Source: an uncultured Acidobacteriota bacterium
Lineage (GTDB): Bacteria > Acidobacteriota > UBA6911
Direction of reading: 5' to 3'
DNA: 64,000 bases
NCBI GenBank assembly: GCA_963809485.1
Contig: CAWEJX010000007.1
Coordinates: forward strand, 384,001-448,000
Shown: in pieces, positions 36,045-56,671 of the stretch
Layout: the number at the start of each line of letters is the position of its first letter
Position numbering within the stretch: position 1 is the first letter of the stretch
Notes under the pieces: generated by a model
What the model was told of the DNA's origin: nothing
Databases searched by the model: none
The model's input: only the letters and a program-made list of their open reading frames with translations
Made by a program: the position numbers and the translations under genes

Positions 36045-38096
36045 TTACTTTTTGATGCGGACGTCTACTACTTTGGCTCCTTGTCCCTCCGGATAAACGA
36101 TAACGGGATTCAGGTCCATTTCCGCGATTTCGGGCAGATCGACGGCCATTTGGGATACAGAGACCAGCAGGCGCTCCACAGCGGCCAGATCGGCGGCAGG
36201 GAGGCCCCGCCCGCCCTTGAGCAGCGGGAGCGACCGGATTTCCCGGACCATTCGCGCGGCGCCTGCCTCGGAGAGAGGCGCCATCCGGAAGGAGACATCC
36301 TTGAGCGATTCCACGTGAACGCCGCCCAATCCGAACATGACAACCGGACCCACGCCCGGTTCGCGTTTAAGCCCTATGATGACTTCCGTCCCCGGCGGGC
36401 ATTGCTCCTGCACGACCAGATTCGCGCCCGGAAACCGGCCGGACATTTCTTCGACTGCCTTCTGAAGCGTTGCCTTGCGGGCGATGTTCAGAGCAACTCC
36501 CCCCGCATCGCTCTTGTGAACGACCTCCGCGCTGTCGACTTTCACCGCCACGGGAAATTTCAGCCCGGAGGGCAGCTGCGTCCCGGTCAACGGAACCGTG
36601 CGGGCGGCGGCGATCTTATAGGCATCCAGCACTTTGAAGGCAGCCGTTTGCGAAACGAATCCAGCAGGCTGTCTGGCCAGTATCTCCTGTGCCTCGGCCT
36701 TGTTTCCCGAAACAATGGCCGGCGGTTCGGCAAGGCGCTTACGGATTTCACCGTAACGCACCATGGCAGCCAGGACGCGCGCGCCTGTCTCCGGGAAGTC
36801 GAAGACCGGGATTCCCGCGCTCTTGATGGTTTCGACTGTTTTTGCCCAATTCTCGTTGGTCATGACGACGGCGATGATGGGCTTGGTCGCTTTACGCGCC
36901 GTCTCGGCAATGCTTCGGGCAATGGCTTCGCAATCCACGAAAAACGGTGTGACCATAGGAATGAGTATGGAGTCGACGCCCGGGTCATCGTTCAGGCAGG
37001 ACAGAGCCAGGGCGAAATGGTCGGCGTTGGCCGTTGCGGCGACATCGACGGGATTCTCCACGTAGGATTCCGCAATCAGCCCGGCGCGCAGCCTGCTCTT
37101 CGTTTCCTCAGTAAACCTGGCCAGCGAGAGCCCGTGGCCCACGCACTCATCCACGGCCATGATGCCGGGACCGCCGGCGTTCGCGATGATGCCCACGTTC
37201 GGACCGGCCGGCACCGGCTGGGTGGCGAACGCGTATGCCGCGGAGATCATCTCTTCCGTCGTGTTGAACCGCATCACGCCGGCGTGCTCGAATATCGTGT
37301 CCGTCAGGGAGTCCCTCTGCATGAGCGATCCCGTATGGGAGCTGACCGCCTTGGCGGCGGCCGCGGTGCGCCCGGTCCGGATCGCCAGTATGGATTTTTC
37401 GCGGGCAATGCGCCTGCAGCGCTCGATGAATCCGGGGGTATCCTTCATGCTTTCGATATGCATGATGATGGTCCGCGTCTCCGGATCATTGCCCAGATAA
37501 TCCAGCAGTTCGTTGGTATTCACATCGGTGGCATTGCCGTGGGATGCATAGATGCGGAAACCCGAGCCCATCCTGCGCAGGTTCAGGTTGAGCATCTCCG
37601 CCACACCGCCGCTCTGGGCAAGGATCGAGGCCTTGCCGGGACGCATCGGCGTAAAGGTGAAGTTGGCGTAGACGGAAATTTCCGGATCCGAATTCATGAC
37701 TCCCTGGGAATTCGGGCCATAAACACGCACGCCGTATCGGCGGGCCGCGTCGAGCAGGGCATCTTCGAGTTTGGCGCCTTCCTCTCCCATCTCGCGGAAC
37801 CCGGCAGTGTGGATGATGACGAACTTGACGCCCATTTTCCCGCAGTCCTCGACCACCTGCGGAACCATGGTGTTCTTGACCACTATGCTCGCGATATCCA
37901 CCGGTCCGGGCACATCCAGGATGCTCGGGTATGCCTTCAGGCCAAGGATTTCGGGCTCCTTCGGATGAATCGGAAAAATCGGGCCCTTGAAGCCGTGGTC
38001 CAGCAGGTTCTTGACGACGCGGTTTCCAATCGAAAAAGTATTGTTGGAAGCCCCTATGACGGCGACGCCGCGGGGCCGGAACAGTGAATCAAGCAT
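36045..38096 (-). CDS. ADP-forming acyl-CoA synthetase (fused alpha/beta, AcdAB-like)
   Basis: VAVIGAS, AGFREMG, GPNSQG, QSGG, SHTGSL (phospho-His), NPVDV, HKSDAGGV, MDLNPV; no GNAT domain. Confidence 0.88.
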   Translation of the reverse strand: MLDSLFRPRGVAVIGASNNTFSIGNRVVKNLLDHGFKGPIFPIHPKEPEILGLKAYPSILDVPGPVDIASIVVKNTMVPQVVEDCGKMGVKFVIIHTAGFREMGEEGAKLEDALLDAARRYGVRVYGPNSQGVMNSDPEISVYANFTFTPMRPGKASILAQSGGVAEMLNLNLRRMGSGFRIYASHGNATDVNTNELLDYLGNDPETRTIIMHIESMKDTPGFIERCRRIAREKSILAIRTGRTAAAAKAVSSHTGSLMQRDSLTDTIFEHAGVMRFNTTEEMISAAYAFATQPVPAGPNVGIIANAGGPGIMAVDECVGHGLSLARFTEETKSRLRAGLIAESYVENPVDVAATANADHFALALSCLNDDPGVDSILIPMVTPFFVDCEAIARSIAETARKATKPIIAVVMTNENWAKTVETIKSAGIPVFDFPETGARVLAAMVRYGEIRKRLAEPPAIVSGNKAEAQEILARQPAGFVSQTAAFKVLDAYKIAAARTVPLTGTQLPSGLKFPVAVKVDSAEVVHKSDAGGVALNIARKATLQKAVEEMSGRFPGANLVVQEQCPPGTEVIIGLKREPGVGPVVMFGLGGVHVESLKDVSFRMAPLSEAGAARMVREIRSLPLLKGGRGLPAADLAAVERLLVSVSQMAVDLPEIAEMDLNPVIVYPEGQGAKVVDVRIKK

Positions 38097-38160
38097 AATG
38101 GCTCCTTAAGGAAAAATTAGTGTTCTGTGGAGTTGGCAACTCGCGAACGGGCAACCGGAA

Positions 38161-39372
38161 CTACTGGATTGCTCCTGCTTCTCTGAGCTTCGCAATTTCC
38201 TCCTTGCTGCAGCCGATTTCGAGCAGCACCTCTTCCGTGTGCTCACCCAGGTCCGGCGCCTTCCTTCTCCAGGATGCCGGCGTTTCGCTGAGATCCCAGG
38301 GGAATCCCATGGTCTTTGTGGGCCCGTGAACAGGGTGATCGATATTAATCATGTAGTTGTTCGCCAGCACCTGCGGGTCCTCCACAACTTCAGGGATGTT
38401 TTGGACCGGAGTATAGATGCAGCCGTGTTCTTCCAGGATCTTCATCCATTCATCCCGGGTTTTGCTGGCAAAAAGCCCGTCAAAAATGGCGATCAGTTCT
38501 TCGCGGTTGGCCGAACGGGCGGCAAAAGTGCTGAATCTCGGGTCATTGATCAGATTCTCGATTCCCAGGGCGCCGCAAACCTTCGCCCACCACCGGTCGG
38601 GGTCCAGGTGGGCGATGGCGATCCATCTGTCGTCTTTGCAGCGATAATGGTTGTACATGGGATTTCCCATTTGGGTTCTCACAAATCTGTGAAATTCCTG
38701 CTTCAGCATGGCCGTGCCGGACATAAGGTGCCCGATCAGGGCGACGACGCTGCCCATCAGCGAAGTGTCGACCACCTGGCCTTTGCCGGTCCGCTCGCGC
38801 GCAAAGAGCGCCAGGCATACGCCCCAGGCGCTTATGAGCCCGCCCAGTTCGTCGCCGAGGCCGGGAAGCATCATGCAGGGAGGCGTCTGGTCTTCCCCGG
38901 CCGCCATCATCAGGCCGGACCGCGCGATGCCGGTGTAATCGAAGGAAAGGCTGTTGGCGGACGGACCCTTGCGTCCCCAGCCGGATGCCTGCGCGTAGAT
39001 GAGCCGCGGATTGCGGGCAAGAAGCGCCTCCGGACCGATCCCGAGACGGATGGGGGCCGCAATGCTCATGTTGTTTAGGAATACATCCGCCCTATCGATG
39101 AGCTTGAGGAAGACATCCAGGCCTTCCTTCTTTTTCATGTCCAGGACGATGCCCCGCTTGTTGCGGTTGGCATGCTCGAAGTAATAGTTGTACCCCTTGA
39201 CGTTGAATTCGGCCTCGATCGTCCGGAAGTGGCGCCTTGCGGGATCTCCGTCTTTCGATTCGATCTTGATCACGTCGGCACCCAGGTCCCCCAGCCGCAT
39301 ACCGGCCACCGGTCCCTGCTGAAACGTGGAAATCTCTATGACCTTGATCCCTGAGAGCGGTCCTTCTGACAT
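38161..39372 (-). CDS. Family III (CaiB/BaiF) CoA-transferase, copy 1
   Basis: GPLSGIKVIE, LGDLGADVIKIE, NRNKRGI, PGLGDELGG (catalytic Asp), GKGQVVDTSL, APDLGEHT. Confidence 0.92.
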   Translation of the reverse strand: MSEGPLSGIKVIEISTFQQGPVAGMRLGDLGADVIKIESKDGDPARRHFRTIEAEFNVKGYNYYFEHANRNKRGIVLDMKKKEGLDVFLKLIDRADVFLNNMSIAAPIRLGIGPEALLARNPRLIYAQASGWGRKGPSANSLSFDYTGIARSGLMMAAGEDQTPPCMMLPGLGDELGGLISAWGVCLALFARERTGKGQVVDTSLMGSVVALIGHLMSGTAMLKQEFHRFVRTQMGNPMYNHYRCKDDRWIAIAHLDPDRWWAKVCGALGIENLINDPRFSTFAARSANREELIAIFDGLFASKTRDEWMKILEEHGCIYTPVQNIPEVVEDPQVLANNYMINIDHPVHGPTKTMGFPWDLSETPASWRRKAPDLGEHTEEVLLEIGCSKEEIAKLREAGAIQ

Positions 39373-39588
39373 TGCATTCCTCCCGATGAGTTAATTTCCA
39401 GAAATCTTTCAACCGGGGATGCCTGCATGGAATCTGGCCCCCGGCAACGCGAGGGCCAATATATCACAGGGATCCGCCGGACCGCCACGCTAACGGTGGC
39501 CGGCCGGGCCGATCCTGAAACAATTGCAAAACGGAATGGAACCTCCGGGCCGGCTATTTCGTTTTAACGGGCAAGGAGGCATTTCGCC

Positions 39589-40578
39589 ATGAAACACTAC
39601 CCGTTGCGCATCGCGGCCATTATCGCTTTGACCAGTCTGATCGGATGCCTGACGGCATTCCCGGCTGTGGAGGGAAGATTTGAGCGAACGTTGACTGTGG
39701 CCGGCCCGGTCACCCTGGAAGTCACGACCGGCTCCGGAAGTATCGACGTGAAGGCAGGCAATTCCGGCTTCGTCAGGATTCGGGGAGTGATTAAGGCCCG
39801 GGATGACCGGCACGCGAGCGCGGAAGAGAAGATCAAATACCTGGAATCTCAACCGCCGATCGAGCAGAGCGGCAATGTTATCCGCGTTGGCCGGATCGAT
39901 GACGACGATTACAGGAATAATGTCTCAATCAGCTACGAGATAGAAACACCGCCCGAGACAACCCTGACCAGCCGCGCCGGGTCCGGAGGCCAGCGGATCT
40001 ATGGGCTGCAGGGACGCGTGGAAGTTGCTACCGGCTCCGGGTCCATCAATATGGATAATATACGGGGTGATGTGAACGCACAGGCCGGCTCGGGCGGCAT
40101 CGAAGCCCACGCTGTGACCGGACGGCTCGAGTTGAGAACCGGCAGCGGGTCCATCAGGGCGTTGGGGATTGCAGGGTCCATCAGCGCAAGCACGGGCAGC
40201 GGCGGTATAACCCTGGATCTGTCGGCCGCCGAACAGGGCTCTGCCATGGACGCGGAAGCCCACACCGGTTCGGGCAGCATCGAGGTTGACGGAGTTGCCG
40301 GATCCCTTCGGGCAAGCACAGGAAGCGGAAGCATCAAGGCCGGCGGGAACCCGGCGGGGAACTGGAGCATTAATACTTCATCCGGCAGCGTTTCGCTCGA
40401 AATGTCGCCACGCGCGGCATTTGATCTTCATGCCCGGACCGCCTCCGGCCGGATAAGTGTGGAGCCGCCGGTGGAAGTTCAAGGTGAAGTCGGCAGGAAC
40501 GAGCTCCGCGGCAAGGTACGCGGCGGCGGCAGCCTGGTCGAGGTTCGTACAAGCTCCGGCAGCATATCCGTCCAATAA
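39589..40578 (+). CDS. Secreted beta-strand-repeat protein (DUF4097/adhesin-like)
   Basis: Signal peptide; many TGSGSI-type repeats. Confidence 0.8.
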   Translation: MKHYPLRIAAIIALTSLIGCLTAFPAVEGRFERTLTVAGPVTLEVTTGSGSIDVKAGNSGFVRIRGVIKARDDRHASAEEKIKYLESQPPIEQSGNVIRVGRIDDDDYRNNVSISYEIETPPETTLTSRAGSGGQRIYGLQGRVEVATGSGSINMDNIRGDVNAQAGSGGIEAHAVTGRLELRTGSGSIRALGIAGSISASTGSGGITLDLSAAEQGSAMDAEAHTGSGSIEVDGVAGSLRASTGSGSIKAGGNPAGNWSINTSSGSVSLEMSPRAAFDLHARTASGRISVEPPVEVQGEVGRNELRGKVRGGGSLVEVRTSSGSISVQ

Positions 40579-40599
40579 GCGCTTCCGTATCAAATCGCG

Positions 40600-40637
40600 A
40601 TCCTCATTGCTCACGGGATCCCGTGAGCAATGAGGAT
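40600..40637. repeat. Perfect 38-bp palindrome
   Basis: ATCCTCATTGCTCACGGGA|TCCCGTGAGCAATGAGGAT. Confidence 0.9.
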
Positions 40638-40827
40638 TCGTCTGCCCGAAGGGCCGGAATTTATGGACCGGATGCACTGCTTTCAGTGTAAAATTAGGGA
40701 TGGGACCGGTTTCGGGATCTCTGCAGACACGGAGAAAGCCGCGGTTTCATGTGCTTTTTCCCCGCATTAGTCTGACTCCCTGCGTTTCCTGTTTCGCCCA
40801 TATGCCGGTCACAGAAGGAGTCCATGC

Positions 40828-42105
40828 ATGAAGACCGTAAAGATGAAGCTCGGCCATGGCTACGTCGATGTATCCGTCCCGGAAGAAAACCTGCTGGGAG
40901 TGATCCTCAAAGAGGTGCCCCCCTCCACAATGACCGAAGACGAGGCGATCCTGTCTGCGCTCGCCCAACCGATCGGCACTCCGAGGCTGAAGGAGATCGT
41001 CAAACCCGGTCAGACCGTCTGCGTTGTCGTATCCGACGTGACCCGCGCCTGGCAGAGGATGCAAGTCTACCTGCCGCATATCGTGAACGAACTGAATGAA
41101 GCGGGTGTCAGGGACAAGGACATTCGTTTCCTGTGCGCTCTCGGCTACCACCGCAATCAGACTCCCGAGGAGCACGAGAGACAGCTGGGGAAGGCGCTTC
41201 TGGAGCGTTTTGGTATCACCGATCATGACTGCATGGACAAGGCCAACCTGGTCCCTCTGGGCACAACCAGCCGCGGAACTCCCGTGACCATCAACAGAAT
41301 CGCGGCGGAGGCCGACCACCTGGTCCTGACCGGCTGCTGCACCTATCACCCGTGGGTTGGCTGGGGAGGCGGAAAGAAGTCGATTCTGCCCGGGATCTCC
41401 TCCATCGAATCCATCCAGCACAATCACCTGATGGTGATGGATGATAAGGGCCGGCAGCGTCCCGAGGTAAGGAGCGGGAATATCCAGGATAATCCGATGC
41501 ACCAGGACATGCTCGAAGTCGCTTCAATTGTGAATCCTTCGTTCATGTTCAACGTGATCATGGGGCACGACGGCAAAATCGCCCGGGCCGTGTGCGGGCA
41601 CTATGAGCAGGCGCACGCTGTGGGACGCAAAATCGTGGACGATCTCTACGCAGTGCCGATCAAAGAGCTTGCTGACATCACGATTTCGTCGCAGGGCGGG
41701 TACCCGAAGGATATCGACGTCTGCCAGACCGGCAAAGGCATCTATCACACGCAGGAAGCAACAAAGCCCGGCGGCACCATAATCATCTTGAGCGACTGCT
41801 CGGAGGGCATCGGGCCGCCGGACGCAAACACCATTTTCCTGGGCTGCGGCACAAACGCCGAGAGGGAAAAAGAGGTCCGCAGTCTATTCACAGTGGCCAA
41901 GTACGTGAGCTATTACATGTGCACCGCCGCCGAAAAATGGAACATCATCATCGTGGGCGGCGGGGATCCTGCGCTGCTGAAGAGGACCTCGCTGAAGACG
42001 GCCAGGACGGTGGAGGAAGCTCTGGAGATGGCCTTCGCCAGGGGAGGGAAGAAAATATACCTGATGCCTCAGGGTTCGAGCGCGCTTCCCAAACTTACTG
42101 CATAA
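40828..42105 (+). CDS. LarA-family nickel-pincer 2-hydroxyacid racemase/epimerase, copy 1
   Basis: PIGTPRL, SDVTR, ALGYHR, YHPWVGWGGGKKSILPG, IQHNH, GGYPKD...QTGKG. Confidence 0.88.
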   Translation: MKTVKMKLGHGYVDVSVPEENLLGVILKEVPPSTMTEDEAILSALAQPIGTPRLKEIVKPGQTVCVVVSDVTRAWQRMQVYLPHIVNELNEAGVRDKDIRFLCALGYHRNQTPEEHERQLGKALLERFGITDHDCMDKANLVPLGTTSRGTPVTINRIAAEADHLVLTGCCTYHPWVGWGGGKKSILPGISSIESIQHNHLMVMDDKGRQRPEVRSGNIQDNPMHQDMLEVASIVNPSFMFNVIMGHDGKIARAVCGHYEQAHAVGRKIVDDLYAVPIKELADITISSQGGYPKDIDVCQTGKGIYHTQEATKPGGTIIILSDCSEGIGPPDANTIFLGCGTNAEREKEVRSLFTVAKYVSYYMCTAAEKWNIIIVGGGDPALLKRTSLKTARTVEEALEMAFARGGKKIYLMPQGSSALPKLTA

Positions 42106-42114
42106 AGGCCGCCC

Positions 42115-42906
42115 CTACTGTTCCGCCTCCCGATCATCGGCGGCAAGCAGGGCGGCCCCAAAAGCGCCTGCCAGCTGCGCGTGAGGCAAAATGTTTACCG
42201 GGCGGCCTAACCGCTGGGACAGCATTTCCGCCAGTACCGGATTGTGGGCCACCACCCCGCCGCTGATGACGACATCGCCCGAGAGCGGATCCATTTCTAT
42301 AATCCGCTTCACGACCGATTCGATAAGCCCGGCAACGATCTCAGGCACTTTCTCGCCCGCGCGCAAATGGGACAGAATTTCCGTTTTGGTGAATACGGTG
42401 CAAAAGCTTCCCATGTGAACTATGTGTTTTGCCTGGCGCGCCAGGGATTCGATCTGGTCCATCGGCACGTCCATGCGCTGGGCAACCTCTTCGAGGAATG
42501 CGCCCGTTCCCGCAGCGCATTTGCGGTTCATTTTGAAATTGATACGCCTGCCTTCGGCGTCCACATGAATGACCTTGTTGTCCTGGCCTCCGACATCAAC
42601 GACTGCGATTTTGCGCGGGAAGAAGTGGTGTGCGGCGCGGGAGTGGCAGGCGATTTCCGTCCGGGTCGCATTGGCGAAAGAGACGTTGTGCCGGCCGTAG
42701 CCGGTTGAGAGGATGCGCGCGAGATCCGGCAGGCTTTTGCCGCAGGAAGCCAAAGCCGCATCCATGGCTTCCTGCGCGCACGTCTCGAAATTGACCCCGG
42801 TTTTCCTTACGTCGGAAGCCAGGAGCGCTTTCCGGGAATCAATAATCGCAACCTTGGTCGCCGAAGCGCCGACATCCACCCCGCCGTAAATCGCGTCGGA
42901 ACTCAC
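42115..42906 (-). CDS. Acyl-CoA dehydratase activase (HgdC/HadI/FldI-like ASKHA 4Fe-4S ATPase)
   Basis: GVDVGASATK, STGYGR, TEIACH, DVGGQDNK, KCAAGTG, CTVF, GAFGAA. Confidence 0.92.
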   Translation of the reverse strand: MSSDAIYGGVDVGASATKVAIIDSRKALLASDVRKTGVNFETCAQEAMDAALASCGKSLPDLARILSTGYGRHNVSFANATRTEIACHSRAAHHFFPRKIAVVDVGGQDNKVIHVDAEGRRINFKMNRKCAAGTGAFLEEVAQRMDVPMDQIESLARQAKHIVHMGSFCTVFTKTEILSHLRAGEKVPEIVAGLIESVVKRIIEMDPLSGDVVISGGVVAHNPVLAEMLSQRLGRPVNILPHAQLAGAFGAALLAADDREAEQ

Positions 42907-44162: not shown

Positions 44163-44360
44163 TCCCTCACTCCTGTGTTTATTGGATTCCTTTTTACCGT
44201 ACCCATCTGTCCTCATTTCCAAATATGGCTTGCCTCGAGCCCGAATGTCAAATTTCTTCATGAAGCGTTCTGGCTTTTGGCTTCCGCCTTCCGATGTTAC
44301 ACTAAGTGTTTTTTTAACCTGTGTGCGTTCATATCGGCGGGCGGCCGGGGAGGAGCAAAG

Positions 44361-45518: not shown

Positions 45519-45530
45519 CAGGAGAGATAC

Positions 45531-48128: not shown

Positions 48129-48138
48129 GGGTGACTCT

Positions 48139-48900
48139 ATGAAATATGCCTTGGGGATCGACGCAGGTTCAAGTTTCGCCAAAGCAGCCGTGTTGGGAGA
48201 AGGAAGGCTGCTGTCCTGCGCCGTAATCCCTGCAAGGGGCAACTATGCGGACGCCGCCCGGAGGGTGTCTGAAACCGCCATTGAAAAGGCAGGGCTTCTC
48301 CGCAAAGACATTTCAACGACAGTGGCGACAGGCTGGGGAGCCGGGGCCGTTGATTTTGCCGACCGGACCGTTGCCGATATCTCCTGCCACGCTGCCGGGA
48401 TTTTTCATTTCTTCCCTTCAGCCCGGACCGTCGTGGACATCGGCAGCCAGTTCAGCCGGGCTATCAAGCTGGCTGACGACGGAAGGGTGATGAATTTCGT
48501 TCAGAATGAGAAGTGCGCGGGCGGGAGCGGCAAGTTTCTCCAGGTCATCGCGCGGATTCTCCATATGAACGTCGCGGATATCGGCGCCCTTTCCTTGGAG
48601 TCGGCAAATCCCGTCGAATTTACCACCGGATGCGCGGTCTTTGCCGAATCTGAAGCGGTTTCGCGGATTGCCGAAGGTGCCAGCCCGGCGGATATCCTGG
48701 CGGGAGTGCACAAAGCGATGGCGGCCAAGATCGTCAACCTCATCGTCCGTCTCGGCCCGGCGCCGGACTGCGCCGTCACCGGCGGGGGCGCCAAAGACAT
48801 TGGACTCGTGCGGACGCTGGAAACAGAGCTGGGCGCAAAAATACTGGTGCCTGAGGAGCCGCAGGTTTCAGCCGCAGTCGGAGCGGCAATCCTGGGATAG
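48139..48900 (+). CDS. Activase paralog with degenerate ATPase motifs (BzdP/BcrD-like)
   Basis: GIDAGSSFAK, ATGWGA, ADISCH, DIGSQFSR; both cluster Cys retained (KCAGGSG, GCAVFAE). Confidence 0.82.
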   Translation: MKYALGIDAGSSFAKAAVLGEGRLLSCAVIPARGNYADAARRVSETAIEKAGLLRKDISTTVATGWGAGAVDFADRTVADISCHAAGIFHFFPSARTVVDIGSQFSRAIKLADDGRVMNFVQNEKCAGGSGKFLQVIARILHMNVADIGALSLESANPVEFTTGCAVFAESEAVSRIAEGASPADILAGVHKAMAAKIVNLIVRLGPAPDCAVTGGGAKDIGLVRTLETELGAKILVPEEPQVSAAVGAAILG

Positions 48901-48997
48901 ACGGCCGGCCAACCGGATTTTCCGGCCGGATACCCGTGAAATTTGTGCGGATTCGTGGCATATTTGTAAAACGATGTCAATTTCAAGAAGAGGAACC

Positions 48998-50281
48998 ATG
49001 AACTACTATCTGAATTACGGCGGCGGCAGAATGAATTTCTCCCTGCCGGCCGAATGGAATGTGCTCAGCTCCCGGGACTGCGCACCCGCGCCTTTGGTTG
49101 AGGACCCCGTCAAAGAGGTCGAACGCGCTCTTGACAATCCGATAGGGACCGCGCCTCTGGAAAAGCTCGCCCGTCCCGGAATGCGAACGGTGGTGCTTTT
49201 TGACGATATGCAGCGGCCGACTCCCGCCTATCTTGCTCTCCCGGCGGTCCTGAACCGTCTTAACAAGGCCGGGGTGCCCGACGAACGGATTACGGCCATT
49301 TGCGCGCGGGGAACCCATCCCGCGCCGACGCCGGAGCAGGTTGAAAAGAAAATCGGAACGGAAGCCGTGCGCCGGCTCGCAGGCCGCATACACATCCACG
49401 AATCCCAGTCGCCGGAAAACGTGTGGATAGGCAAAACCCGCCGCGGCACGGTGGTCGAGATCAATCGGCATGTGGCTGAAGCCGATCTGGTTCTGGGCAT
49501 CGGGGCGTGCATGCCCCATCCCAATGCCGGATTCGGGGGCGGCTGCAAGATCATCATGCCCGGAGTTGCCTCTTACCGCACCATCGGGGACCACCACTAC
49601 AACTGGCTTCGCAACAGGAGCTGCAAGCTGAATGTCCTGGAAGGGAATCCTTATTACGAAGAAATCGTGGAAATTGCCCGCCTGGGCTGCCTGGCCTTCA
49701 AAATCGATTTCCTCCTGAACGAAACCAACCAGGTCATCAGGGTTTTCGCGGGCGATCCCGTCGAGGAGCACCGGCAGGCCTGCGATCACGCTGCCTCTCT
49801 TTATGTTGTTGCCCTGCCGAAACAGGCAGATGTTGTGATCACATCGGCCTCGCCTCTTGAAATCGGCGTCCAGGCGACCAAATCGCTGCTTAACGCCAAG
49901 AGCGCCGCAAGGACAGACGCCACGATTATCTGGGTGGCCGGGCAAAAGCAGGCGGGCCCGTTGATGGCCCTCATCGAGCAGATGGCGGCCGCCAAAAGCG
50001 CCAACGAATACCATCGCCGGCTTCTCAACGGCGATATCCCGGACAGCATCAAACCTTACGGTATTTCGTTCTTCATGCTGGGCGTTCCGTTCAAGGAAAT
50101 GTCGGAGCAGTACAACGTGGTCCACGTGACGGAAGGTTTGACTAAGGAGCAGGTGGAACTGATGAATTTCGGATACGCTTCATCACTCGACGATGCGATC
50201 CGCGAAGTTCAGAAGAAAATGCCCCGAGCCGATGTAACGATTCTTCCCTCAGGCGGCATTATCATTCCATCGGTACAGTAG
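48998..50281 (+). CDS. LarA-family nickel-pincer racemase/epimerase, copy 2
   Basis: NPIGTAPL, DDMQRPT, ARGTH, PHPNAGFGGGCKIIMPG, GDHH, QATK. Confidence 0.85.
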   Translation: MNYYLNYGGGRMNFSLPAEWNVLSSRDCAPAPLVEDPVKEVERALDNPIGTAPLEKLARPGMRTVVLFDDMQRPTPAYLALPAVLNRLNKAGVPDERITAICARGTHPAPTPEQVEKKIGTEAVRRLAGRIHIHESQSPENVWIGKTRRGTVVEINRHVAEADLVLGIGACMPHPNAGFGGGCKIIMPGVASYRTIGDHHYNWLRNRSCKLNVLEGNPYYEEIVEIARLGCLAFKIDFLLNETNQVIRVFAGDPVEEHRQACDHAASLYVVALPKQADVVITSASPLEIGVQATKSLLNAKSAARTDATIIWVAGQKQAGPLMALIEQMAAAKSANEYHRRLLNGDIPDSIKPYGISFFMLGVPFKEMSEQYNVVHVTEGLTKEQVELMNFGYASSLDDAIREVQKKMPRADVTILPSGGIIIPSVQ

Positions 50282-50304
50282 GCGATTGCGTTACAGAACA
50301 ATCC

Positions 50305-50365
50305 AACCACGAAATACGCCAAACACTTGAAATCTCCATTCGTGTATTTGGTGTATTTCGTGGTT
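50305..50365. terminator. Imperfect 22-bp inverted repeat between convergent genes (likely bidirectional terminator or REP-like element)
   Basis: AACCACGAAATACGCCAAACAC ... GTATTTGGTGTATTTCGTGGTT. Confidence 0.6.
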
Positions 50366-50378
50366 CTCTTTTAAGCTC

Positions 50379-51589
50379 CTACACGGTTGCGCCGGAGCTT
50401 TTCAGACGGCCGATTTCCTCTCTGCTGTAACCTAGTTCCAGCAAAATCTCTTCCGTGTGCTCGCCCAGTTGAGGCGCCGGTTTTCTCCAGGAGGCCGGGG
50501 TTTCGCTGAAATCCCACGGGAAGCCGACTTCTCGAACCCGGCGTCCCCAGACCGGATGATCCACTTCTATGATGTATTGGTTGGCGATTGCCTGAGGGTC
50601 CTGGCAGACTTCCGTGAGAGACTGGACAGGAGTGCAGATGCAGCCTCCCTTCTTCAGCTGCTCAAGCCACTCATCGCGGTTTTGGCGGCAAATTTCTCAT
50701 CCAGAATGCGGATAAGCTCTTTTGAATTCTGGCCGCGCGCTTCCATGGTGTGGAACCTGGGATCGTGTTCCAGATGCTCGAGACCCATGGCCTTGCAGAA
50801 GATGGGCCAGTACCGGTCGGGCTGAAGGTGCGCCACCGCAATCCACTTGCCATCGCGGCATGAATAGTGGTTATACATGGGATTGCCCGCCTCATTCCGG
50901 CATTCCCGGGGGTATTCCTGTCCCAGCATGGCCGGGGCATCGAGGATGAGGCCGGCCAGGGCGATGATGCTGCCCATGAGCGATGTATCGATCAATTGGC
51001 CTTTGCCGGTCTTCTCGCGGGCATATAGAGCCGCTGTGATAGCCCAGGCAAGCATCAAGGCGCCGATCTGGTCGCCCAGACCGGGCAGCATTTGCGCCGG
51101 AGGGCTCCCTTTTTCGCCGGCGCACATCATCAGACCGGAACGGGCAATGCCCGTATAATCAAAGGAGAGGTCGCCGGCTGCGGGACCTTTTCTTCCCCAT
51201 CCCGAAGAATGGCCATAGATGAGGCGCGCATTCCGCTTCATCAGATCGTCGGGCCCGATGCCGATTTTAATCGGGGCGTCGATGCTCATATTCGTAATGA
51301 AGACATCCGCTTTGTCGATCAGCTTCAGGAATATCTCTTTCCCCTGGGGCGACTTGAGGTCCAGCGCGATGCTGCGCTTGTTGCGGTTGTTGCTTTCAAA
51401 GTAATAATTTTCGCCCTTAAGGCCCACCGTGGCTCCGATCAGCCGCATAAAGCCGCGGGCAGGATCCCCTTCTTTGGGTTCGACTTTGATGACGTCGGCG
51501 CCGAGATCCGCCAGTTTTGTTCCGGCGACCGGCCCCTGTTGAAACATGGTAATTTCCACTACACGAACGCCTGTCAGTGGCCCGGACAT
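50379..51589 (-). CDS. Family III CoA-transferase, copy 2, with a -1 frameshift near 50678
   Basis: GPLTGVRVVE, NRNKRSI, PGLGDQIGA; C-terminus (FPWDFSETPASWRKPAPQLGEHT) in another frame; close paralog of 38161..39372. Confidence 0.88.
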
Positions 51590-51677
51590 CTGAAATCCTC
51601 CTTAAAAAAAATCGCTACTATAGTCGGCGGGAAAAGCCCAGTCAAGAATATCGGCCTTTGGCCGATGCTCCTAATCC

Positions 51678-52517
51678 TTATCTTCCCATGCGCCGGGCCT
51701 TTTCCAGGATCGAGGGCCGCGCTTCCTCCATCATGTCGCGGACAGCATCGTACCGCATGGTGCGCTGTTCGAAAGTGCGCTTCGTGAGAGCCCCGAGGAA
51801 CCGCCCTTCGAAATCCCGGAAATAGGATCCGTAAAGGTGATAGCTGTCTGCAATGTGGCAATATCGCCCGACTTTTATCTCTTTGCCCGACATCTCGGAG
51901 ATCCGGCCGGCCATCAGCTTCTGCAGCTGCACCAGGGCAAAGATGTTCATAAAAGCGGCCTTGTAGGCATCGTTGGAGCGGAAACGGGCATTGAGGCTGA
52001 GCAACCATTCGCCGTTTTCCTCGATCATACGGCCCCACAGGCTTTGAAGACAGGCCGGGTCGAAGCAGTCGTTGTCCTCCCAGACTTTCCAGGTGATCGC
52101 CTGTGCTCGCCGTGTGTGCGGGACTTCGGCCAGTTTCCGGCACATTGAATCGATCTGGTCGAAAGTCTGAAAACCCGGCACATCGTAGGCGAAGAGCCGG
52201 CGGTGATAGGTGTATTCCCATCGTGTATCCGCCGGATCCCCCGGATCGCGCACCAGGTGGTCTTTGATGCCTTCGCACACCTCCATGACATATTCCTGAA
52301 GCTCCACCGGCCCGCCGGGAAAATCTTTGTGGATCATGGGCTCACGGAGCGGATCGGCGATGGTCAGAATCATGGTGCAGTCTTTGCTCGGCGGATCTCC
52401 GTCCTTGTCAAATTGCGTGCGGATATCGCAACCGCGCCGGTGCAGTTCAAGCAGGGAGTTCTCCCAGCCGCGTGCGATGCAGTCCGCCTCCACATGCAAA
52501 ACAGGTATTCCGCTCAT
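51678..52517 (-). CDS. Thymidylate synthase-like protein (archaeal-type ThyA fold)
   Basis: YTYHRRL, TRRAQ, DPACLQ (catalytic Cys), FRSND, FMN, DSYHLY. Confidence 0.78.
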   Translation of the reverse strand: MSGIPVLHVEADCIARGWENSLLELHRRGCDIRTQFDKDGDPPSKDCTMILTIADPLREPMIHKDFPGGPVELQEYVMEVCEGIKDHLVRDPGDPADTRWEYTYHRRLFAYDVPGFQTFDQIDSMCRKLAEVPHTRRAQAITWKVWEDNDCFDPACLQSLWGRMIEENGEWLLSLNARFRSNDAYKAAFMNIFALVQLQKLMAGRISEMSGKEIKVGRYCHIADSYHLYGSYFRDFEGRFLGALTKRTFEQRTMRYDAVRDMMEEARPSILEKARRMGR

Positions 52518-52710
52518 CCGACACTCCCGCGCGAAATAGATATGTCTATATAGCACGGATGCGCATAAAACCGCCATGATGTTCGGACTTCATTTGCGGC
52601 AGCGCGGCTTTGAGAAAAGCAGGCAAGTCTGTTTGCCCCTGATTTCCCCGGCGTGCTAGACTCTTCCGCGATCCGGCCAAATCCCGGATGCGCGAAGGAG
52701 TCGACAAATT

Positions 52711-53355
52711 ATGCCCGATATGTCCCGGCTTTATGATGCGATCCTCAACGGCGAGGACAAACTGGCGCTGCAGCTTGTCCAGGAAGCTCTGCAGGAATCC
52801 GCCAATCCCACCGAGCTGATCGGCCGGTGGATGATCCCGGCCATGGATGAAGTCGGCCGGCGCTTTGAAGCCCAGGAATACTTCATCCCGGAAATCCTGC
52901 TGGCCGCCCGCGCAATGAAAACAGCGATGGAGCCTTTGCGCCCTCTGCTTGCGGCGCGCGGAGAGCAGCCGACCGGGCGGGTAGTCCTGGGGACCGTGAA
53001 AGGAGACTTGCACGATATCGGCAAAAACATGGTCGGCTCCATGCTGGAAGGCGCTGGCTTTGAAGTCACGGATCTTGGGATCGATGTGCCGGCGGAGAAG
53101 TTCGTCGAAGCGGTCGGGAACGGCAACGCGAACATCCTCGCGCTCTCGGCTCTTCTAACGGTCACACTGCCGGAAATGAAAAAAACCATCGAGGCGCTCA
53201 GCCGCGCAGGCCTTCGCCACCGGGTAAGGATCCTGGTGGGCGGAGCGCCCGTCACCCAGGCTTATGCGGATGAAATCGGGGCCGACGGATATGGGGAAAA
53301 CGCCGGCTCCGCAGTGTCCATCGCCCGCGCTCTTCTGGAAAAACAAAAGCACTGA
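52711..53355 (+). CDS. Corrinoid (cobalamin-binding) methyltransferase protein (MtbC/MttC/OdmA-like)
   Basis: Cap domain MIPAMDEVGRRFE; GTVKGDLHDIGKNMV; LSALLT; LVGGAP; IGADGYG. Confidence 0.93.
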   Translation: MPDMSRLYDAILNGEDKLALQLVQEALQESANPTELIGRWMIPAMDEVGRRFEAQEYFIPEILLAARAMKTAMEPLRPLLAARGEQPTGRVVLGTVKGDLHDIGKNMVGSMLEGAGFEVTDLGIDVPAEKFVEAVGNGNANILALSALLTVTLPEMKKTIEALSRAGLRHRVRILVGGAPVTQAYADEIGADGYGENAGSAVSIARALLEKQKH

Positions 53356-53443
53356 GCATGACCTTTGCCGCAGGAACCAGCGCCTTAAGAATCATCGTTA
53401 CTCCGCGTTTTTACAGCGTCCGTCGGCGTTAAAGGATCCTGGA

Positions 53444-53800
53444 GTCAGGTACCTCCGGCTTTGCCGGAGGCTTGAAAGATTAGATCCGCTCAAAACGGTT
53501 GGACTAGTTACGCCGGTCTTGAACGCTGACTTACGCGGGCAAAAGCCGATGAGGCGCTTCCGATCCCCGCAGGGGCCAGCGCTCCGCGCTGGACAGTTTA
53601 CTGCGGCCCTGTGGCAAGCGCCGTGCGGCAAGCAGATGAAGGGTATGAGAAACCGGGCGTTTGCCACAGTGCCGCCGCAGAAAACTCCATCGGAAGCGCC
53701 TCATCGGCTTTTGCTCGCCGAACAAATCGGCGTTTGTCAGCGTTTTAAACTACGGAGCTGTCAAACTCTTTGAGTCCCCCAGCCGAGCGCTGAGATTATC
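53444..53800 (-). mobile_element. IS200/IS605-like non-autonomous element, copy 4 (one end degenerate)
   Basis: GTCAGGTACCTCCGGCTTTGCCGGAGG start; inner module oriented as in copy 1; terminal hairpin decayed. Confidence 0.78.
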
Positions 53801-53868
53801 GATATCTTTGCCGTTTCAATTATCCCCCCGATCATCTATTCTGAAAATTCAGTCTTGGAGGTGATTGA

Positions 53869-56331
53869 TTGGCCGGCCTGAAAATCAAGCCAAGATCCAA
53901 AGACACTGAGATCCTTCGGACTACCGTGTGGTCTGCCGGACCCGGATGCCACGGGACTTGCGGCGTGTTAGCCCACGTGCGCAAGGGCAAGCTCGTCAAG
54001 ATAGAAGGGGATCCCGATCATCCCTGGAACCAGGGGCGGCTTTGCGCCCGCTGCCTGGCGATGACCCAGTATGTGTATCACCCCGACCGCCTGACGCGTC
54101 CCTTGAAGCGTGCCGGCGAGCGGGGTGAAGGGAAATGGGAGGAGATATCCTGGGAAGAAGCCTTCGACCTGATCGAAAAAAGGCTGGGCGATATCCGGGA
54201 AAAATACGGTCCTGAGAGTGTCGTTTTCAGTATGGGAACGGGCCGGGACATCAGCTCCTGGCTCTGCATGCTGGCTTACGCCTTCGGCAGCCCGAACGTC
54301 ATGTTCGCATTGAGCGGAAACGCCTGTTACAGCCCGAGGATTGCCGCGGTCGAAACCGTGATGGGCGACTACTGCGTTCCCGATGCCGCGCAGTGGCTTG
54401 AGACTCGTTACGAGGACCCGCGCTACCGGGTGCCGAAGTGCATCGTGATCTGGGGCTACAACATTCCCAACACGTGCCCCGATAACATTTTCGGCCACTG
54501 GTTCATCGATCTGATGAAGCGCGGGAGCGAAATCGTCTGCATGGATCCGCGGCTGACATGGTTTTCTTCGCGCGCGAAGCATTGGCTCAGGCTCCGGCCG
54601 GGCACCGACGGAGCCCTGGCCATGGGCTTCCTGAACACGATCATCCGCGAGGACCTCTACGACCGCGATTTTGTGGAAAAATGGACCAATGCCCCATTCC
54701 TCGTCAGAAAGGATACCGGCAAACTGCTGCGGGAGGCCGATCTGCGGAAGGACGGTTCACGGGACAATTTCGTGGTTTGGGACCGCGAAGCAGGGCAGGC
54801 GGCTGTTTGGGAATCCGGGAAAGCGGGATATGCGTCCGGGAATCCCAGGCCGGCTCTGCGCGGCGACTATTCAGTCGATCTGGCGGAAGGCTCCAAAGCC
54901 GAATGCCGGACTGTGTGGGATGCGTTCTGCGCCGAGGTTGACGGGTACCCACTCGACCGGGTATCGGAAATCACATGGGTGCCCAAAAAGGAAATCCAGG
55001 CCGCTGCCCGCTTCTTCGCCGAAAGCAAACCTGCGTCGATTCATTGGGGCCTGCCGATCGATTCCACCCCGGGCATTACACCGGCGGCACAGGCAATTAC
55101 GGCTCTCTGGTGTCTCACGGGCAACCTGGAAGTCCCCGGAGGGAACGTAATCGCCCGCAACGCCTTCGAATGCGTTTCGTACGCTTTGCCGGGCGCCGAA
55201 GGGATCATACGCCTCTCATCCAAAGAGGCGGATCAGCCGCGGATCGGCACCGACAAATACGGCCCGTTCAGAAAATTCATCTGGCGAACTCAGACGGACA
55301 CGGCCCTGGATCAGATTCTCAGCGGGAAACCGTACCCGGTCAAAGCCCTCTGGATACAGACCGGCAACCTGATCGCCGGCATCGGTTTTGAACCGAAAAA
55401 GTGGCGCGAAGCTCTCAAGAAGCTTGATTTTGTTGCGGCGGTCGACCTGTTTATGACCCCCACAACCCAGTTTGCGGATATTGTCCTGCCCGCCGCCACG
55501 TTTCTTGAAAAGGACAGCGTCCGGAGCTGGTGGGTTCCCCTGCAGACCATCAACAAAGCGATTTCCGTCGAGGGCTGCAAGCCGGATGTCGAAATCAATT
55601 TTGAGCTGGCCCGCAGGTTCGATCCGAACCTGCGCTGGAAATCCGTGGAGGAGCTGTTCGACGACATCCTGCGGAATTCCGGAATGACTTTCAAAGAACT
55701 GCAGGAAAGGGAGTGGGCCCTGCCGCCGGAAGGGCATTCAAGCGCTCCTTACCACCGCCACGAAAAGGGATTGTTGCGCAAAGACGGACAGCCGGGCTTT
55801 GCCACTTCCTCGGGAAAAGTGGAACTGTACTCCGTGCTTCGCGAGGAGTGGGGGCTGGAGCCGCTGCCTCACTACGAGGAGCCTCCGTTTACGCCCGTAA
55901 GCAGGCCCGACCTGGCAAAGGAGTATCCCCTGATTCTTTCCACCGGCCGGCGCTCCTTCGCGTATTTCAACGCGGAGCACCGAATGATCCCGTGGCTGCG
56001 GGAACTCGATCCGGACCCGACCGTTGAGATTCACCCGGATACGGCCAGGGCGCTGAATATCGGCGACGGCGATTGGGTGTGGGTTGAAAACTGGCTGGGC
56101 AAGCAGAAGTTTAAGGCCAAGGTGACGCTTGCGGTTCTTCCGCAGATGGTCATGGCGGCGCATGGATGGTGGTTCCCCGAAGAGGACGGCGCGGAGCCGT
56201 CTCTGTTCGGCGCGTGGAAGTCGAACATCAACCAGCTGATCCCGATGGGGAGCCAGGGAAAGGATGGGCTGGGCGCACCGATCAAGAATCTGCTGTGCAA
56301 GGTTTACAAAGCCCGGGGGCGGGATGAATAG
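53869..56331 (+). CDS. Cytoplasmic Mo/W-bisPGD oxidoreductase catalytic subunit (acetylene hydratase / catechol dehydroxylase-like clade)
   Basis: TTG start with GGAGG; WSAGPGCHGTCG...LCARC; YHPDRL..PLKR; SGNACYSPR; LRPGTDGAL; DLFMTPT; C-terminal IHPDTA..HGWW; no Tat signal. Confidence 0.85.
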   Translation: MAGLKIKPRSKDTEILRTTVWSAGPGCHGTCGVLAHVRKGKLVKIEGDPDHPWNQGRLCARCLAMTQYVYHPDRLTRPLKRAGERGEGKWEEISWEEAFDLIEKRLGDIREKYGPESVVFSMGTGRDISSWLCMLAYAFGSPNVMFALSGNACYSPRIAAVETVMGDYCVPDAAQWLETRYEDPRYRVPKCIVIWGYNIPNTCPDNIFGHWFIDLMKRGSEIVCMDPRLTWFSSRAKHWLRLRPGTDGALAMGFLNTIIREDLYDRDFVEKWTNAPFLVRKDTGKLLREADLRKDGSRDNFVVWDREAGQAAVWESGKAGYASGNPRPALRGDYSVDLAEGSKAECRTVWDAFCAEVDGYPLDRVSEITWVPKKEIQAAARFFAESKPASIHWGLPIDSTPGITPAAQAITALWCLTGNLEVPGGNVIARNAFECVSYALPGAEGIIRLSSKEADQPRIGTDKYGPFRKFIWRTQTDTALDQILSGKPYPVKALWIQTGNLIAGIGFEPKKWREALKKLDFVAAVDLFMTPTTQFADIVLPAATFLEKDSVRSWWVPLQTINKAISVEGCKPDVEINFELARRFDPNLRWKSVEELFDDILRNSGMTFKELQEREWALPPEGHSSAPYHRHEKGLLRKDGQPGFATSSGKVELYSVLREEWGLEPLPHYEEPPFTPVSRPDLAKEYPLILSTGRRSFAYFNAEHRMIPWLRELDPDPTVEIHPDTARALNIGDGDWVWVENWLGKQKFKAKVTLAVLPQMVMAAHGWWFPEEDGAEPSLFGAWKSNINQLIPMGSQGKDGLGAPIKNLLCKVYKARGRDE

Positions 56332-56332
56332 A

Positions 56333-56671
56333 ATGGAAAAGAAGCCCGAATTCGGTTTGCTGATCGATTACGAATATTGCACCGGATGCCACAGCTGCGA
56401 AATCGCCTGTGCCCAGGAATACAACCATCCGCCCGGCATACGCGGCATCAAGGTCTTCGAGGTGGAGCAGAAGATGCCCAATGGCCGGCTGTACCTGGCC
56501 AACTTCCCGTTTCCCACCGAAACCTGCGTCCTTTGCCCGCACCTCACCCGGGAGGGCATGGAACCGGCTTGCGTGAAGCACTGCATGGCTGCCTGCATGA
56601 AATACGGACGCGTCGAGGATCTCGCTGCCGAACTGGGGAAGAAGCCCCGCATGGTCCTTTGGGTCCCTTGA
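56333..56671 (+). CDS. 4Fe-4S electron-transfer subunit of the Mo enzyme
   Basis: LLIDYEYCTGCHSCEIAC; CVLC; ACVKHC. Confidence 0.88.
   Translation: MEKKPEFGLLIDYEYCTGCHSCEIACAQEYNHPPGIRGIKVFEVEQKMPNGRLYLANFPFPTETCVLCPHLTREGMEPACVKHCMAACMKYGRVEDLAAELGKKPRMVLWVP

Follow-up and report, generated by a model that had tools for sequence, protein, structure and literature searches.

A composite gene island in an uncultured Acidobacteriota bacterium: a probable anaerobic 2-hydroxy-acid block beside three independently inherited units

Gene content of the island

The genome of an uncultured Acidobacteriota bacterium of the lineage UBA6911 contains, within a stretch of 64,000 nucleotides (G000:C7:384001-448000, here called the window, to whose first letter all positions refer unless another contig is named), an island of about 21 kb at 36045-56671 that combines nickel-pincer, radical Fe-S, corrinoid and Mo/W enzymes. 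The source assembly (G000) comprises 6.04 Mb in 21 contigs, with a completeness of 95.7% and a contamination of 7.3%. Genes were called by Pfam and NCBIfam scans of long open reading frames (ORFs), and their starts were refined by ribosome-binding sites and profile alignments. An initial annotation had listed for this region an ADP-forming acyl-CoA synthetase (ACD), two family III CoA-transferases, two LarA homologues, three dehydratase or reductase subunits with three activases, a ThyA-like gene, a corrinoid protein and a Mo/W-bisPGD enzyme with an Fe-S partner, and the scans recovered all of them (Table 1). The apparent set of three dehydratases and three activases resolves into one single-subunit enzyme with one activase on the minus strand and a two-plus-two module in BzdNOPQ order on the plus strand. 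LarA genes number about 5-6 per 6.04 Mb in this genome, and only about 0.02 would be expected by chance in any 21 kb.

The initial annotation had placed all these modules in a single fermentative route. The comparisons described below suggest that the island is probably not one unified new pathway but a composite of four units: a block around the single-subunit dehydratase (unit 1), the Bzd-like four-gene module (unit 2), the ThyA-like gene (unit 3), and the Mo/W enzyme with its mini-ferredoxin and the corrinoid gene (unit 4).

Table 1. Features of the island, with the profile or structure matches that identify them
Feature	Position	Strand	Support
ADP-forming acyl-CoA synthetase (ACD), fused alpha-beta, 683 aa	36045-38096	-	Pfam CoA_binding_2, Succ_CoA_lig, Ligase_CoA_2, ATP-grasp_5 (2.7e-57)
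Family III CoA-transferase 1, 403 aa	38161-39372	-	CoA_transf_3 5e-115
DUF4097/LiaG-like gene	39589-40578	+	Pfam 6.7e-16
LarA homologue 1 (LarA1)	40828-42105	+	Lar_N 1e-72
Activase (archerase) of single-subunit HGD	42115-42906	-	BcrAD_BadFG 3.5e-51; TIGR00241 220 bits (cut-off 125)
Single-subunit HGD-D protein (HGD), HadB-like (alpha-type), 419 aa, GTG start with ribosome-binding site	42903-44162	-	PF06050 6e-65
BzdN-like subunit, HGD-D, 385 aa	44361-45518	+	BzdN 8s02_B, 189 bits
BzdO-like catalytic subunit, HGD-D, 442 aa	45531-46859	+	BzdO 8s02_A, 85 bits
High-copy structured intergenic repeat, between BzdO-like gene and ATPase 1	46874-47122	not assigned	blastn
Bzd-like module ATPase 1	47120-47971	+	BcrAD_BadFG 4.7e-66
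Bzd-like module ATPase 2	48139-48900	+	BcrAD_BadFG 2e-47
LarA homologue 2 (LarA2), 427 aa	48998-50281	+	Lar_N 4e-52
Family III CoA-transferase 2, read through 1-nt frameshift	50379-51589	-	CoA_transf_3 8e-93
ThyA-like gene	51678-52577	-	PF00303 6.6e-8, 32.5 bits (cut-off 24.3)
Stand-alone corrinoid protein	52711-53355	+	B12-binding_2 1e-29; B12-binding 6e-22
Second copy of high-copy repeat family, between corrinoid and Mo genes	53442-53790	not assigned	blastn
Mo/W-bisPGD enzyme, 820 aa, TTG start	53869-56331	+	Pfam/NCBIfam scans
Ferredoxin-like partner (mini-ferredoxin), 112 aa, two Cys motifs	56333-56671	+	weak Fer4 matches

The HGD-family cassette and its additions in the genus

Unit 1 is defined by its gene content, its conserved residues and its synteny. 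Homologues of the HGD protein number in the thousands (7905 at E <= 1e-20 among 8000 scored). A survey of one genome per species gave 80 HGD loci, 9 of them in-genus-like (at least 81% identity) and 71 outside; the outside proteins are 62-68% identical to that of the window, and their hosts include Desulfobacterota, Planctomycetota, Chloroflexota, Zixibacteria, Aminicenantes and Thermoplasmatota archaea. In these 71 loci, many of which are truncated by contig ends, the activase adjoins HGD in 62, an ACD adjoins HGD or the activase in 47, a PanE/ApbA-type 2-oxoacid reductase lies nearby in 38, and activase, ACD and PanE occur together in 31. No second HGD-D gene was found beside HGD, either in the HGD/activase operon of the window, whose two genes overlap by 4 nt, or in the 71 outside loci. 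The outside loci also encode, within 7 kb of HGD, AMP-forming ligases (20), thiolase-like proteins (19), PaaK-like ligases (12), IorA (9), IorB (7) and ACT-pair proteins (8), a neighbourhood of partly aromatic-amino-acid flavour. The other families of the island hardly occur there: LarA and family III CoA-transferase are found in 1/71 loci each, a Mo-bisPGD gene (26% identical) in 1/71, and orthologues of the Mo, corrinoid, ThyA-like and Bzd-like genes in 0/71.

The best solved relative of HGD is HadB (3o3m_A, 172 bits), with whose conserved Cys residues Cys94, Cys134 and Cys362 align; these three are invariant in 11/11 aligned homologues, and the full set of invariant Cys lies at 45, 94, 134, 206, 298, 305 and 362. 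We also considered whether HGD is a double-cubane protein, but the spacing of its invariant Cys does not fit the seven-Cys motif CX19CX18-19CX29CX166-170CX32-34CX32C given for those proteins in PMC7317905, and its score against the NCBIfam double_cubane model is 51.6 bits at a cut-off of 350. The best NCBIfam match of the ACD is ADP-forming 4-hydroxybutyrate-CoA ligase (485 bits, under the cut-off of 1300). CoA-transferase 1, which is 62% identical to CoA-transferase 2, reached no NCBIfam equivalog at its cut-off.

Within the genus the cassette is larger. LarA and CoA-transferase genes are present in 9/9 in-genus loci of the survey, and among 14 fetched HGD-bearing genus stretches the activase was found in 14, ACD in 13, CoA-transferase in 13 and LarA in 11. 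The general gene order in the genus is ACD-[CoAT1-LarA1-Ldh_2]-activase-HGD-[PanE]-LarA2-CoAT2, where CoAT1 and CoAT2 are the two CoA-transferases. Two intact LarA racemases and two family III CoA-transferases have been added to the cassette by this Acidobacteriota genus only. Pfam confirmed the two reductases in the block of relatives (PanE in 7/7 and Ldh_2 in 3/3 scanned ORFs); both are gone from these places in the window, and the Ldh_2 orthologue of G000 is located on contig C9.

Neither LarA homologue reaches the cut-off of a curated family. LarA1 is nearest LarAH10 (NF052525, 452 bits, cut-off 540) and retains, in comparison with Mar2 (6d6z), the Asp/Arg pair, both catalytic His, the cofactor Lys and the Ni-His. 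LarA2 is best matched by the LarAH6 malate racemase family (275 bits, cut-off 500) and retains the equivalents of D72, R75, H108, H174, K184 and H200 of LarA (5huq). The roles given here to these residues (catalytic His, cofactor Lys, Ni-His, Asp/Arg) are those which we take them to have in the family. The initial annotation had pointed out that larBCE, etfAB and methyltransferase genes are missing from the window; all are encoded elsewhere in the genome, larB on contig C20 (286 bits, cut-off 175), larC on C1 (PF01969, 472 bits), larE on C14 (310 bits, cut-off 150) and etfAB on C5; methyltransferases of the URO-D type have 19 matches in G000, none of them in the window. The 2-hydroxy acids racemised by LarAH10 members have mainly hydrophobic or bulky side chains (PMC11770544). 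Because LarA1 is nearest to this family, and because IorAB and PaaK-like genes often lie near the cassette outside the genus, an aromatic (aryl-lactate) substrate appears plausible for unit 1.

The other three units, repeats and assembly

The Bzd-like module has the gene order N-O-P-Q, with two distinct ATPases that are 43% identical to each other. Orthologues of its four genes (88-99% identity for the BzdO-like protein) occur in 8/24 genus genomes, and in five of the seven genus genomes with usable flanks (G012, G018, G010, G005, G020) the module stands alone among unrelated genes, namely sulfatase, glycosyltransferase, carboxylesterase, transporter, and AOR-like and metallo-beta-lactamase-fold genes. 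G006 has the full island around it, and in G001 it adjoins LarA2 and the genes onward to the ferredoxin, with other genes on the far side. Homologues outside the genus are 74-85% identical, several of the named ones being from Syntrophorhabdaceae. The island is repeated in only one of 32 metagenome loci of at least 9 kb (contig L134), the module being alone in the other 31; five other long metagenome loci carry distant paralogues (29-40%) of some island family. Both ATPase genes are retained in 19/31 long outside module loci, and 36 outside loci of at least 7 kb show recurrent neighbours: a PAS histidine kinase is present in 15, a sigma-54 activator in 12 and, immediately upstream, an AMP-forming ligase in 11.

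The ligands of the two HGD-D subunits were judged against the BzdNO structure paper (PMC11971306). The BzdN-like subunit keeps equivalents of only Cys73, Cys100 and Cys327 among the six double-cubane Cys (36/73/100/263/293/327); in 58/58 homologues positions 36 and 263 are Ser or Thr and position 293 is Phe, Leu, Ile or Val. In the BzdO-like subunit the equivalents of Cys95, Cys128, Cys380 and Glu65 are invariant and an Arg stands in place of His131 in 79/79 homologues; the alignment does not reach Trp46. The unit would accordingly combine the subunit plan of a Bzd-type benzoyl-CoA reductase with an iron-sulfur ligand pattern of the dehydratase type. Its distribution and ligands suggest a separate, mobile enzyme module of the BCR/HAD family, either reductase or dehydratase, which in a few strains appears to have landed between HGD and LarA2, in the region of their divergent promoters.

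Two further observations concern this module. In the complete genome G012 (G012:C1:6768000-6787999, positions 8059-12435) it is followed by STAS, metallo-beta-lactamase-fold, AOR-like (weak) and NmrA-like genes, neighbours that are a possible clue to its substrate. In G000 itself, contig C12 opens with a second, partial copy of the two module ATPases (C12:1-1839; 86% and 78% identical), followed by carboxylesterase and PRPP synthetase genes as at the stand-alone locus of G018; either the genome has two copies of the module or a second strain was binned with it.

The ThyA-like gene matches its family weakly (TIGR03283, 95.6 bits at a cut-off of 174.6) and is the sole PF00303 match in the G000 genome, in which ThyX was not found. 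It is single-copy in 30/30 genus genomes including G000, with ThyX present in 1/29, and its sequence shows the motifs PAC, RSND, MNIF and DSYHLY, corresponding to the catalytic Cys, R-S-x-D, Asn and His-Tyr motifs which we take to be catalytic in ThyA. Orthologues align from residues 13-21, and the true start is probably at 52517. None of nine outside-genus orthologues (44-80% identity) has island genes within 8 kb. As the only thymidylate-synthase gene, single-copy throughout the genus, with its motifs kept and no island genes near its outside orthologues, it is probably a housekeeping thymidylate synthase. The corrinoid gene is divergently paired with it even in genomes that have no Mo orthologue (G015, locus L037; G002, locus L038).

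The Mo/W enzyme begins directly with its Fe-S domain and has no Tat signal; it is predicted to be cytoplasmic and Cys-ligated. Among solved structures, acetylene hydratase (2e7z, 270 bits) is the best relative and polysulfide/thiosulfate reductase comes next; Cys153 of the window enzyme aligns with the metal-ligand Cys of acetylene hydratase and PsrA. Asp13 of acetylene hydratase, next to the second cluster Cys, is presumably essential there; this position is His28 in the window protein and His in 112/112 homologues, on which ground we rejected acetylene hydratase activity. The first Cys of the CX2CX3C (FS0) motif is replaced by Gly24 in the same 112 homologues, in all of which Cys27, Cys31 and Cys59 are invariant, Cys62 being present in 106/112. 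Cys62, the fourth Cys, comes from a CxxC and lies three residues past the usual last ligand (residues 24-62; 53869-54060). The ferredoxin partner begins 1 nt after the Mo gene and follows it in 13/13 stretches for which the downstream side was fetched; no NrfD-like gene was found downstream of the Mo gene in the Pfam scan. Catechol dehydroxylases are closest to acetylene hydratase, and those of the Gordonibacter type are smaller, have no Tat signal and pair with a small 4Fe-4S protein (PMC7028382). The architecture of the window enzyme matches that of a soluble catechol dehydroxylase, and to this extent the dehydroxylation suggested by the initial annotation for a Cys-ligated Mo enzyme is supported.

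Orthologues of the Mo gene (at least 80% identity) are present in 18/29 other genus genomes and absent from 11/29. In a sample of 301 genomes of the phylum the only matches were in the genus members G000 and G001, and homologues of 71-77% identity occur in other phyla. The corrinoid protein falls under the cut-offs of all NCBIfam corrinoid models; its gene is present in 11/17 genus genomes in which the fetched flank of the ThyA-like gene could be judged. G015 and G002 have the corrinoid gene but no Mo gene, and in G022, G016, G018, G003 and G010 the reverse is true; all told, roughly half of the relatives compared have a corrinoid gene with the Mo enzyme. Corrinoid paralogues elsewhere in G000 adjoin URO-D or pterin-binding methyltransferase genes, whereas the window copy adjoins none.

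Most URO-D matches of G000 align with the profile's C-terminal half, and the ORFs that carry them are about 460 aa long. Together with about 25 family III CoA-transferase paralogues, they form families unusually large for one genome. A different kind of cluster lies at G000:C7:130001-147000 (L214). Its products include a GltD-like Fe-S flavoprotein, MTHFR, a tungsten-type aldehyde:ferredoxin oxidoreductase, a URO-D-like fragment and a protein of 909 aa in which the family III CoA-transferase domain occurs twice; a Mo-bisPGD paralogue is also there, in split form.

A 1-nt frameshift in a run of four T (50680-50683) interrupts CoA-transferase 2: the Pfam match ends at profile position 294/366 and the C-terminus resumes in another frame. 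Contigs of related strains in the public runs X1 and X7 carry five T at this place, which restores a frame of 403 codons, and the orthologue in G006 is intact. These observations favour a homopolymer length error over a true pseudogene, and the frameshift is probably due to the assembly and not to gene decay. Other genes split in G000, a LarA paralogue (C21:123278-123860) and a Mo-bisPGD paralogue (C7:141108-143037), hint at systematic indel errors. The same island order is found in G006, with proteins 79-99% identical, and on L134, which is 99% identical to the window; the junction between HGD and the BzdN-like gene (44162/44361) is bridged by contigs of runs X1, X4 and X7, and further public-run pieces span 48104-50256 and 50378-51401. 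A related strain in run X4 has 977 extra letters between LarA2 and CoA-transferase 2 (50274-50378). Of the public runs listed as containing 42100-52000, none is an RNA run.

The island interior also holds the DUF4097 gene, which at this site is found only in G006 and L134 and is a neighbour outside the system, and three copies of a high-copy repeat. Members of this repeat family measure about 250-400 nt and form about 310 merged loci in the 6-Mb genome (blastn); the window contains copies at 15939-16339, 29801-30043, 46874-47122, 53442-53790 and 56687-57088. A fold z-score of -8.2 marks the repeat as strongly structured, Rfam gives no match for it, and its contig depth in public runs is 369-4691. 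Related strains have no copy between the BzdO-like gene and ATPase 1 (joint 46864>47135 in X4 and X7), which indicates that the repeat moved recently; a loose-end consensus from the public runs matches the copy at 53442-53790. A second, smaller family of about 40 copies is represented at 48020-48130.

The first 30 kb of the window contain housekeeping genes, and the island is flanked by efflux systems (MacB/HlyD at 31348-35446, TolC/HlyD/AcrB at 57797-63496). Six ORFs, 36039-38087(+), 44991-46115(-), 46961-47701(-), 48983-50125(-), 53264-53773(+) and 56368-56916(-), were rejected as genes because they have no family match and lie opposite real genes or on repeats. No Rfam match was obtained in 35500-57800 at E <= 0.01. 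In 37500-57400 the promoter scan gave 8 sites (8.7 expected) and the terminator scan 26 (22.8 expected), both at chance level; no weight was given to the two top-scoring promoter-like sites, although one precedes the HGD gene and the other CoA-transferase 2.

Interpretation and comparison with known systems

We consider it rather likely that unit 1 is a conserved anaerobic 2-hydroxy-acid block which lies beside three independently inherited units, and for this block we infer an order of reactions, a range of substrates, a homodimeric state of the dehydratase and a direction of flux. LarA1 and LarA2, as nickel-pincer racemases, would convert free 2-hydroxy acids to the (R)-form, and the two family III CoA-transferases, or the ACD run backwards, would make the (R)-2-hydroxyacyl-CoA. 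The HadB-like radical dehydratase, consisting of the catalytic-type subunit only and primed by the ATP-driven activase, would then dehydrate the thioester to 2-enoyl-CoA, and the ACD would later release the acid with a substrate-level yield of ATP. The substrates would probably be acids with hydrophobic or aryl side chains, for example phenyllactate. Unit 2 would be a self-contained, ATP-dependent radical enzyme of four genes; unit 4 would consist of a catechol-dehydroxylase-like Mo/W enzyme with a mini-ferredoxin, sometimes preceded by a methyl-carrying corrinoid protein whose methyltransferases would be encoded elsewhere.

Several observations weigh against this assignment. The linkage of LarA and CoA-transferase to the cassette is confined to the genus and could be inherited gene order, as for the adjacent efflux genes. 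A PanE orthologue is absent from the G000 genome (best match 25% identical), an acyl-CoA dehydrogenase gene was not found in the block, and the sole etfAB pair is on another contig. All 2-hydroxyacyl-CoA dehydratases studied so far have, to our knowledge, two different subunits, and the one-subunit enzyme might have a different chemistry. As to the independence of the other units, the Bzd-like module is co-directional with LarA2 in G000, G006 and G001, with a gap of 97 nt in the window, and a local functional link between the two is possible. The ThyA-like gene closely precedes CoA-transferase 2 in many relatives, on the same strand and with a gap of 48-88 nt in the genomes measured (G000, G022, G016, G042 and G004), and ThyX and the ThyA-like gene coexist in six genomes of the class sample.

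That all modules form one route for methoxylated or hydroxylated aryl-2-hydroxy acids or lignin-derived aromatics, with corrinoid O-demethylation, Mo-dependent dehydroxylation, racemisation, CoA activation, dehydration or ring reduction and recovery of ATP, as the initial annotation had proposed, we regard as improbable. The order from ACD to ferredoxin is indeed found in seven genus genomes besides G006 (G022, G016, G018, G003, G042, G004, G020), 11 nt separate the corrinoid gene from the Mo gene in G042, the Mo enzyme is built like a soluble catechol dehydroxylase, the 19 URO-D-family matches suggest a wide capacity for methyl transfer, and LarA1 is nearest to racemases of hydrophobic and aryl 2-hydroxy acids. 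The modules separate, however, once one leaves close kin: the Bzd-like module is found by itself, 11 of 29 genus genomes have no Mo gene, and none of the outside cassette loci includes orthologues of the other modules. Corrinoid and Mo genes occur without each other even within the genus, no methyltransferase gene lies nearby, and the ThyA-like gene is the only thymidylate-synthase candidate. Since the same genus synteny also joins unrelated hlyD/macB efflux genes to the ACD (in five genomes), it is no proof of a functional link by itself; it reflects shared descent as much as function. Co-conservation, which had been suggested as a check, fails for the Bzd-like, Mo/corrinoid and ThyA-like genes and holds for LarA, CoA-transferase, HGD, activase and ACD, whose order is kept in the genus, with a core of HGD, activase and ACD across phyla. 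The part of the initial proposal that comprised racemisation, CoA activation, dehydration and ATP recovery is thereby supported, and a thematic link is possible in that one genome combines a possible block for aromatic 2-hydroxy acids, a catechol-dehydroxylase-like enzyme and many methyltransferases. We give very little credence to the more elaborate version in which the whole block is a genus super-locus for lignin-derived methoxy- and hydroxy-aryl-lactates. In that version the corrinoid protein would demethylate, perhaps with the ThyA-like methylene-folate enzyme, whose gene is always next to its own, as a new methyl-transfer couple, and the Mo/W enzyme would remove a ring hydroxyl; racemases and CoA-transferases would feed the one-subunit dehydratase, and the hybrid reductase/dehydratase would act on the product in some strains.

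The remaining alternatives concern single units. The Bzd-like module could be a second 2-hydroxyacyl-CoA dehydratase with a heterodimeric activator that serves LarA2 and CoA-transferase 2, so that units 1 and 2 would be joined; in its small subunit the Cys ligands are reduced to the three of a HadC-type [4Fe-4S] site, its large subunit combines a three-Cys site and Glu but has no BzdO-type His, and the shared direction with LarA2 noted above would fit as well. We think this unlikely, given that in 31/32 metagenome loci and 5/7 genus genomes no LarA, CoA-transferase or 2-oxoacid reductase lies beside the module, which sits instead with an AMP-forming ligase and sigma-54-type regulators, and that its two different ATPase genes are as in ring reductases and its best solved relatives are BzdN and BzdO. 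That the substrates of the single-subunit cassette are small aliphatic acids (lactate, 2-hydroxyglutarate, 2-hydroxyisocaproate), in the manner of acrylate or hydroxyglutarate fermentation, and that it is unrelated to aromatics, is possible but somewhat doubtful. The best solved relative of HGD is the alpha subunit of 2-hydroxyisocaproyl-CoA dehydratase, LarA2 is nearest the malate racemase family, the ACD is nearest ligases of short hydroxy acids, and thiolase-like and generic AMP-ligase genes (19 and 20 loci) are commoner neighbours than IorAB; the preference of LarAH10 for hydrophobic and bulky side chains (PMC11770544) and the fact that in other phyla the cassette repeatedly has IorAB, PaaK-like and ACT-pair genes in its vicinity speak against it, and no point on either side fixes a substrate. 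Finally, the contamination of the bin, the partial second copy of the module ATPases at the start of contig C12 and the several split genes in the assembly might suggest that the island is an assembly chimera. This is very unlikely and hardly credible, because G006 and L134 share the gene order and contigs of X1, X4 and X7 bridge 44162/44361, by which it is largely refuted.

The stretch gathers three widespread and uncharacterised families of oxygen-sensitive metalloenzymes: a putative radical dehydratase with the catalytic subunit only, found in bacteria and archaea alike at 62-68% identity; an enzyme of four genes that has the build of a ring reductase and dehydratase-type Fe-S sites, which databases label 'benzoyl-CoA reductase'; and an environmental branch of soluble catechol-dehydroxylase-like molybdoenzymes. 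The position of nickel-pincer racemases beside a radical dehydratase in this genus offers a testable physiological role for LarA homologues, and it suggests how Acidobacteriota of wetlands and soils might ferment both enantiomers of 2-hydroxy acids derived from amino acids or plants. Metagenome surveys that take genes of the module as evidence for anaerobic degradation of benzoate will probably overestimate this process. The island also counsels caution in that gene order at the genus level does not by itself define a pathway.

HadA and FldA belong to the family III CoA-transferases. With HadBC/HadI/HadA of Clostridioides difficile (3o3m) and the Fld, Hgd and Lcd systems, unit 1 shares the HGD-D fold, an adjacent ASKHA-type activase and family III CoA-transferases, but it differs from HadBC in having the alpha-type subunit only, with a HadC-like partner missing from the outside loci as well, in that the conserved partner of the cassette is an ADP-forming synthetase and not a transferase, and in the added LarA racemases. 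The [4Fe-4S] cluster of HadB is bound through three Cys, and a two-gene plan like that of the single-subunit enzyme, a homomeric HGD-D protein with one activase, is described for DCCP/YjiM and DCCP-R/YjiL (PMC7317905). Our literature searches, as far as their listings show, gave no description of a single-subunit HGD cassette with an ADP-forming synthetase, and the text of a preprint on UBA6911 Acidobacteria contains none of the six terms looked for in it. Both window LarAs share the Lar_N and LarA_C domains and the key residues of the LarA superfamily (PMC7583248, PMC11770544). The words 'dehydratase' and 'CoA-transferase' are absent from the main text of these two papers, and we found no described locus uniting LarA with a radical dehydratase, although the supplementary context tables of the LarA papers, which lay outside the search, may list such neighbours.

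With BzdNOPQ (8s02, PMC11971306) unit 2 shares the N-O-P-Q order, the two ATPases, the catalytic three-Cys site and Glu65; it departs from it in the three lost double-cubane Cys and the Arg for His131, in having no dch/had/oah-type genes beside it, and in NCBIfam scores far under the BzdN and BzdO cut-offs. The Mo/W enzyme resembles the Gordonibacter-type Dodh (PMC7028382) in its bis-MGD cofactor, the missing Tat signal, the small 4Fe-4S partner and the missing membrane anchor; unlike Dodh it does not have the first Cys of the N-terminal cluster or an adjacent MFS transporter, and it belongs to an environmental Acidobacteriota lineage. The acrylate-pathway lap cluster of Coprococcus catus and Anaerotignum propionicum (PMC8914356) combines CoA transfer, stereo-inversion and radical dehydration with an activator, as unit 1 would. 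There, a lactoyl-CoA epimerase is credited with the inversion, at the level of the thioester; a LarA-type racemase is encoded in the separate lct cluster, the dehydratase has three components, and an ADP-forming synthetase is missing from the cluster as described. By analogy of its steps, the lap cluster is the closest described logic to that which we propose for unit 1.

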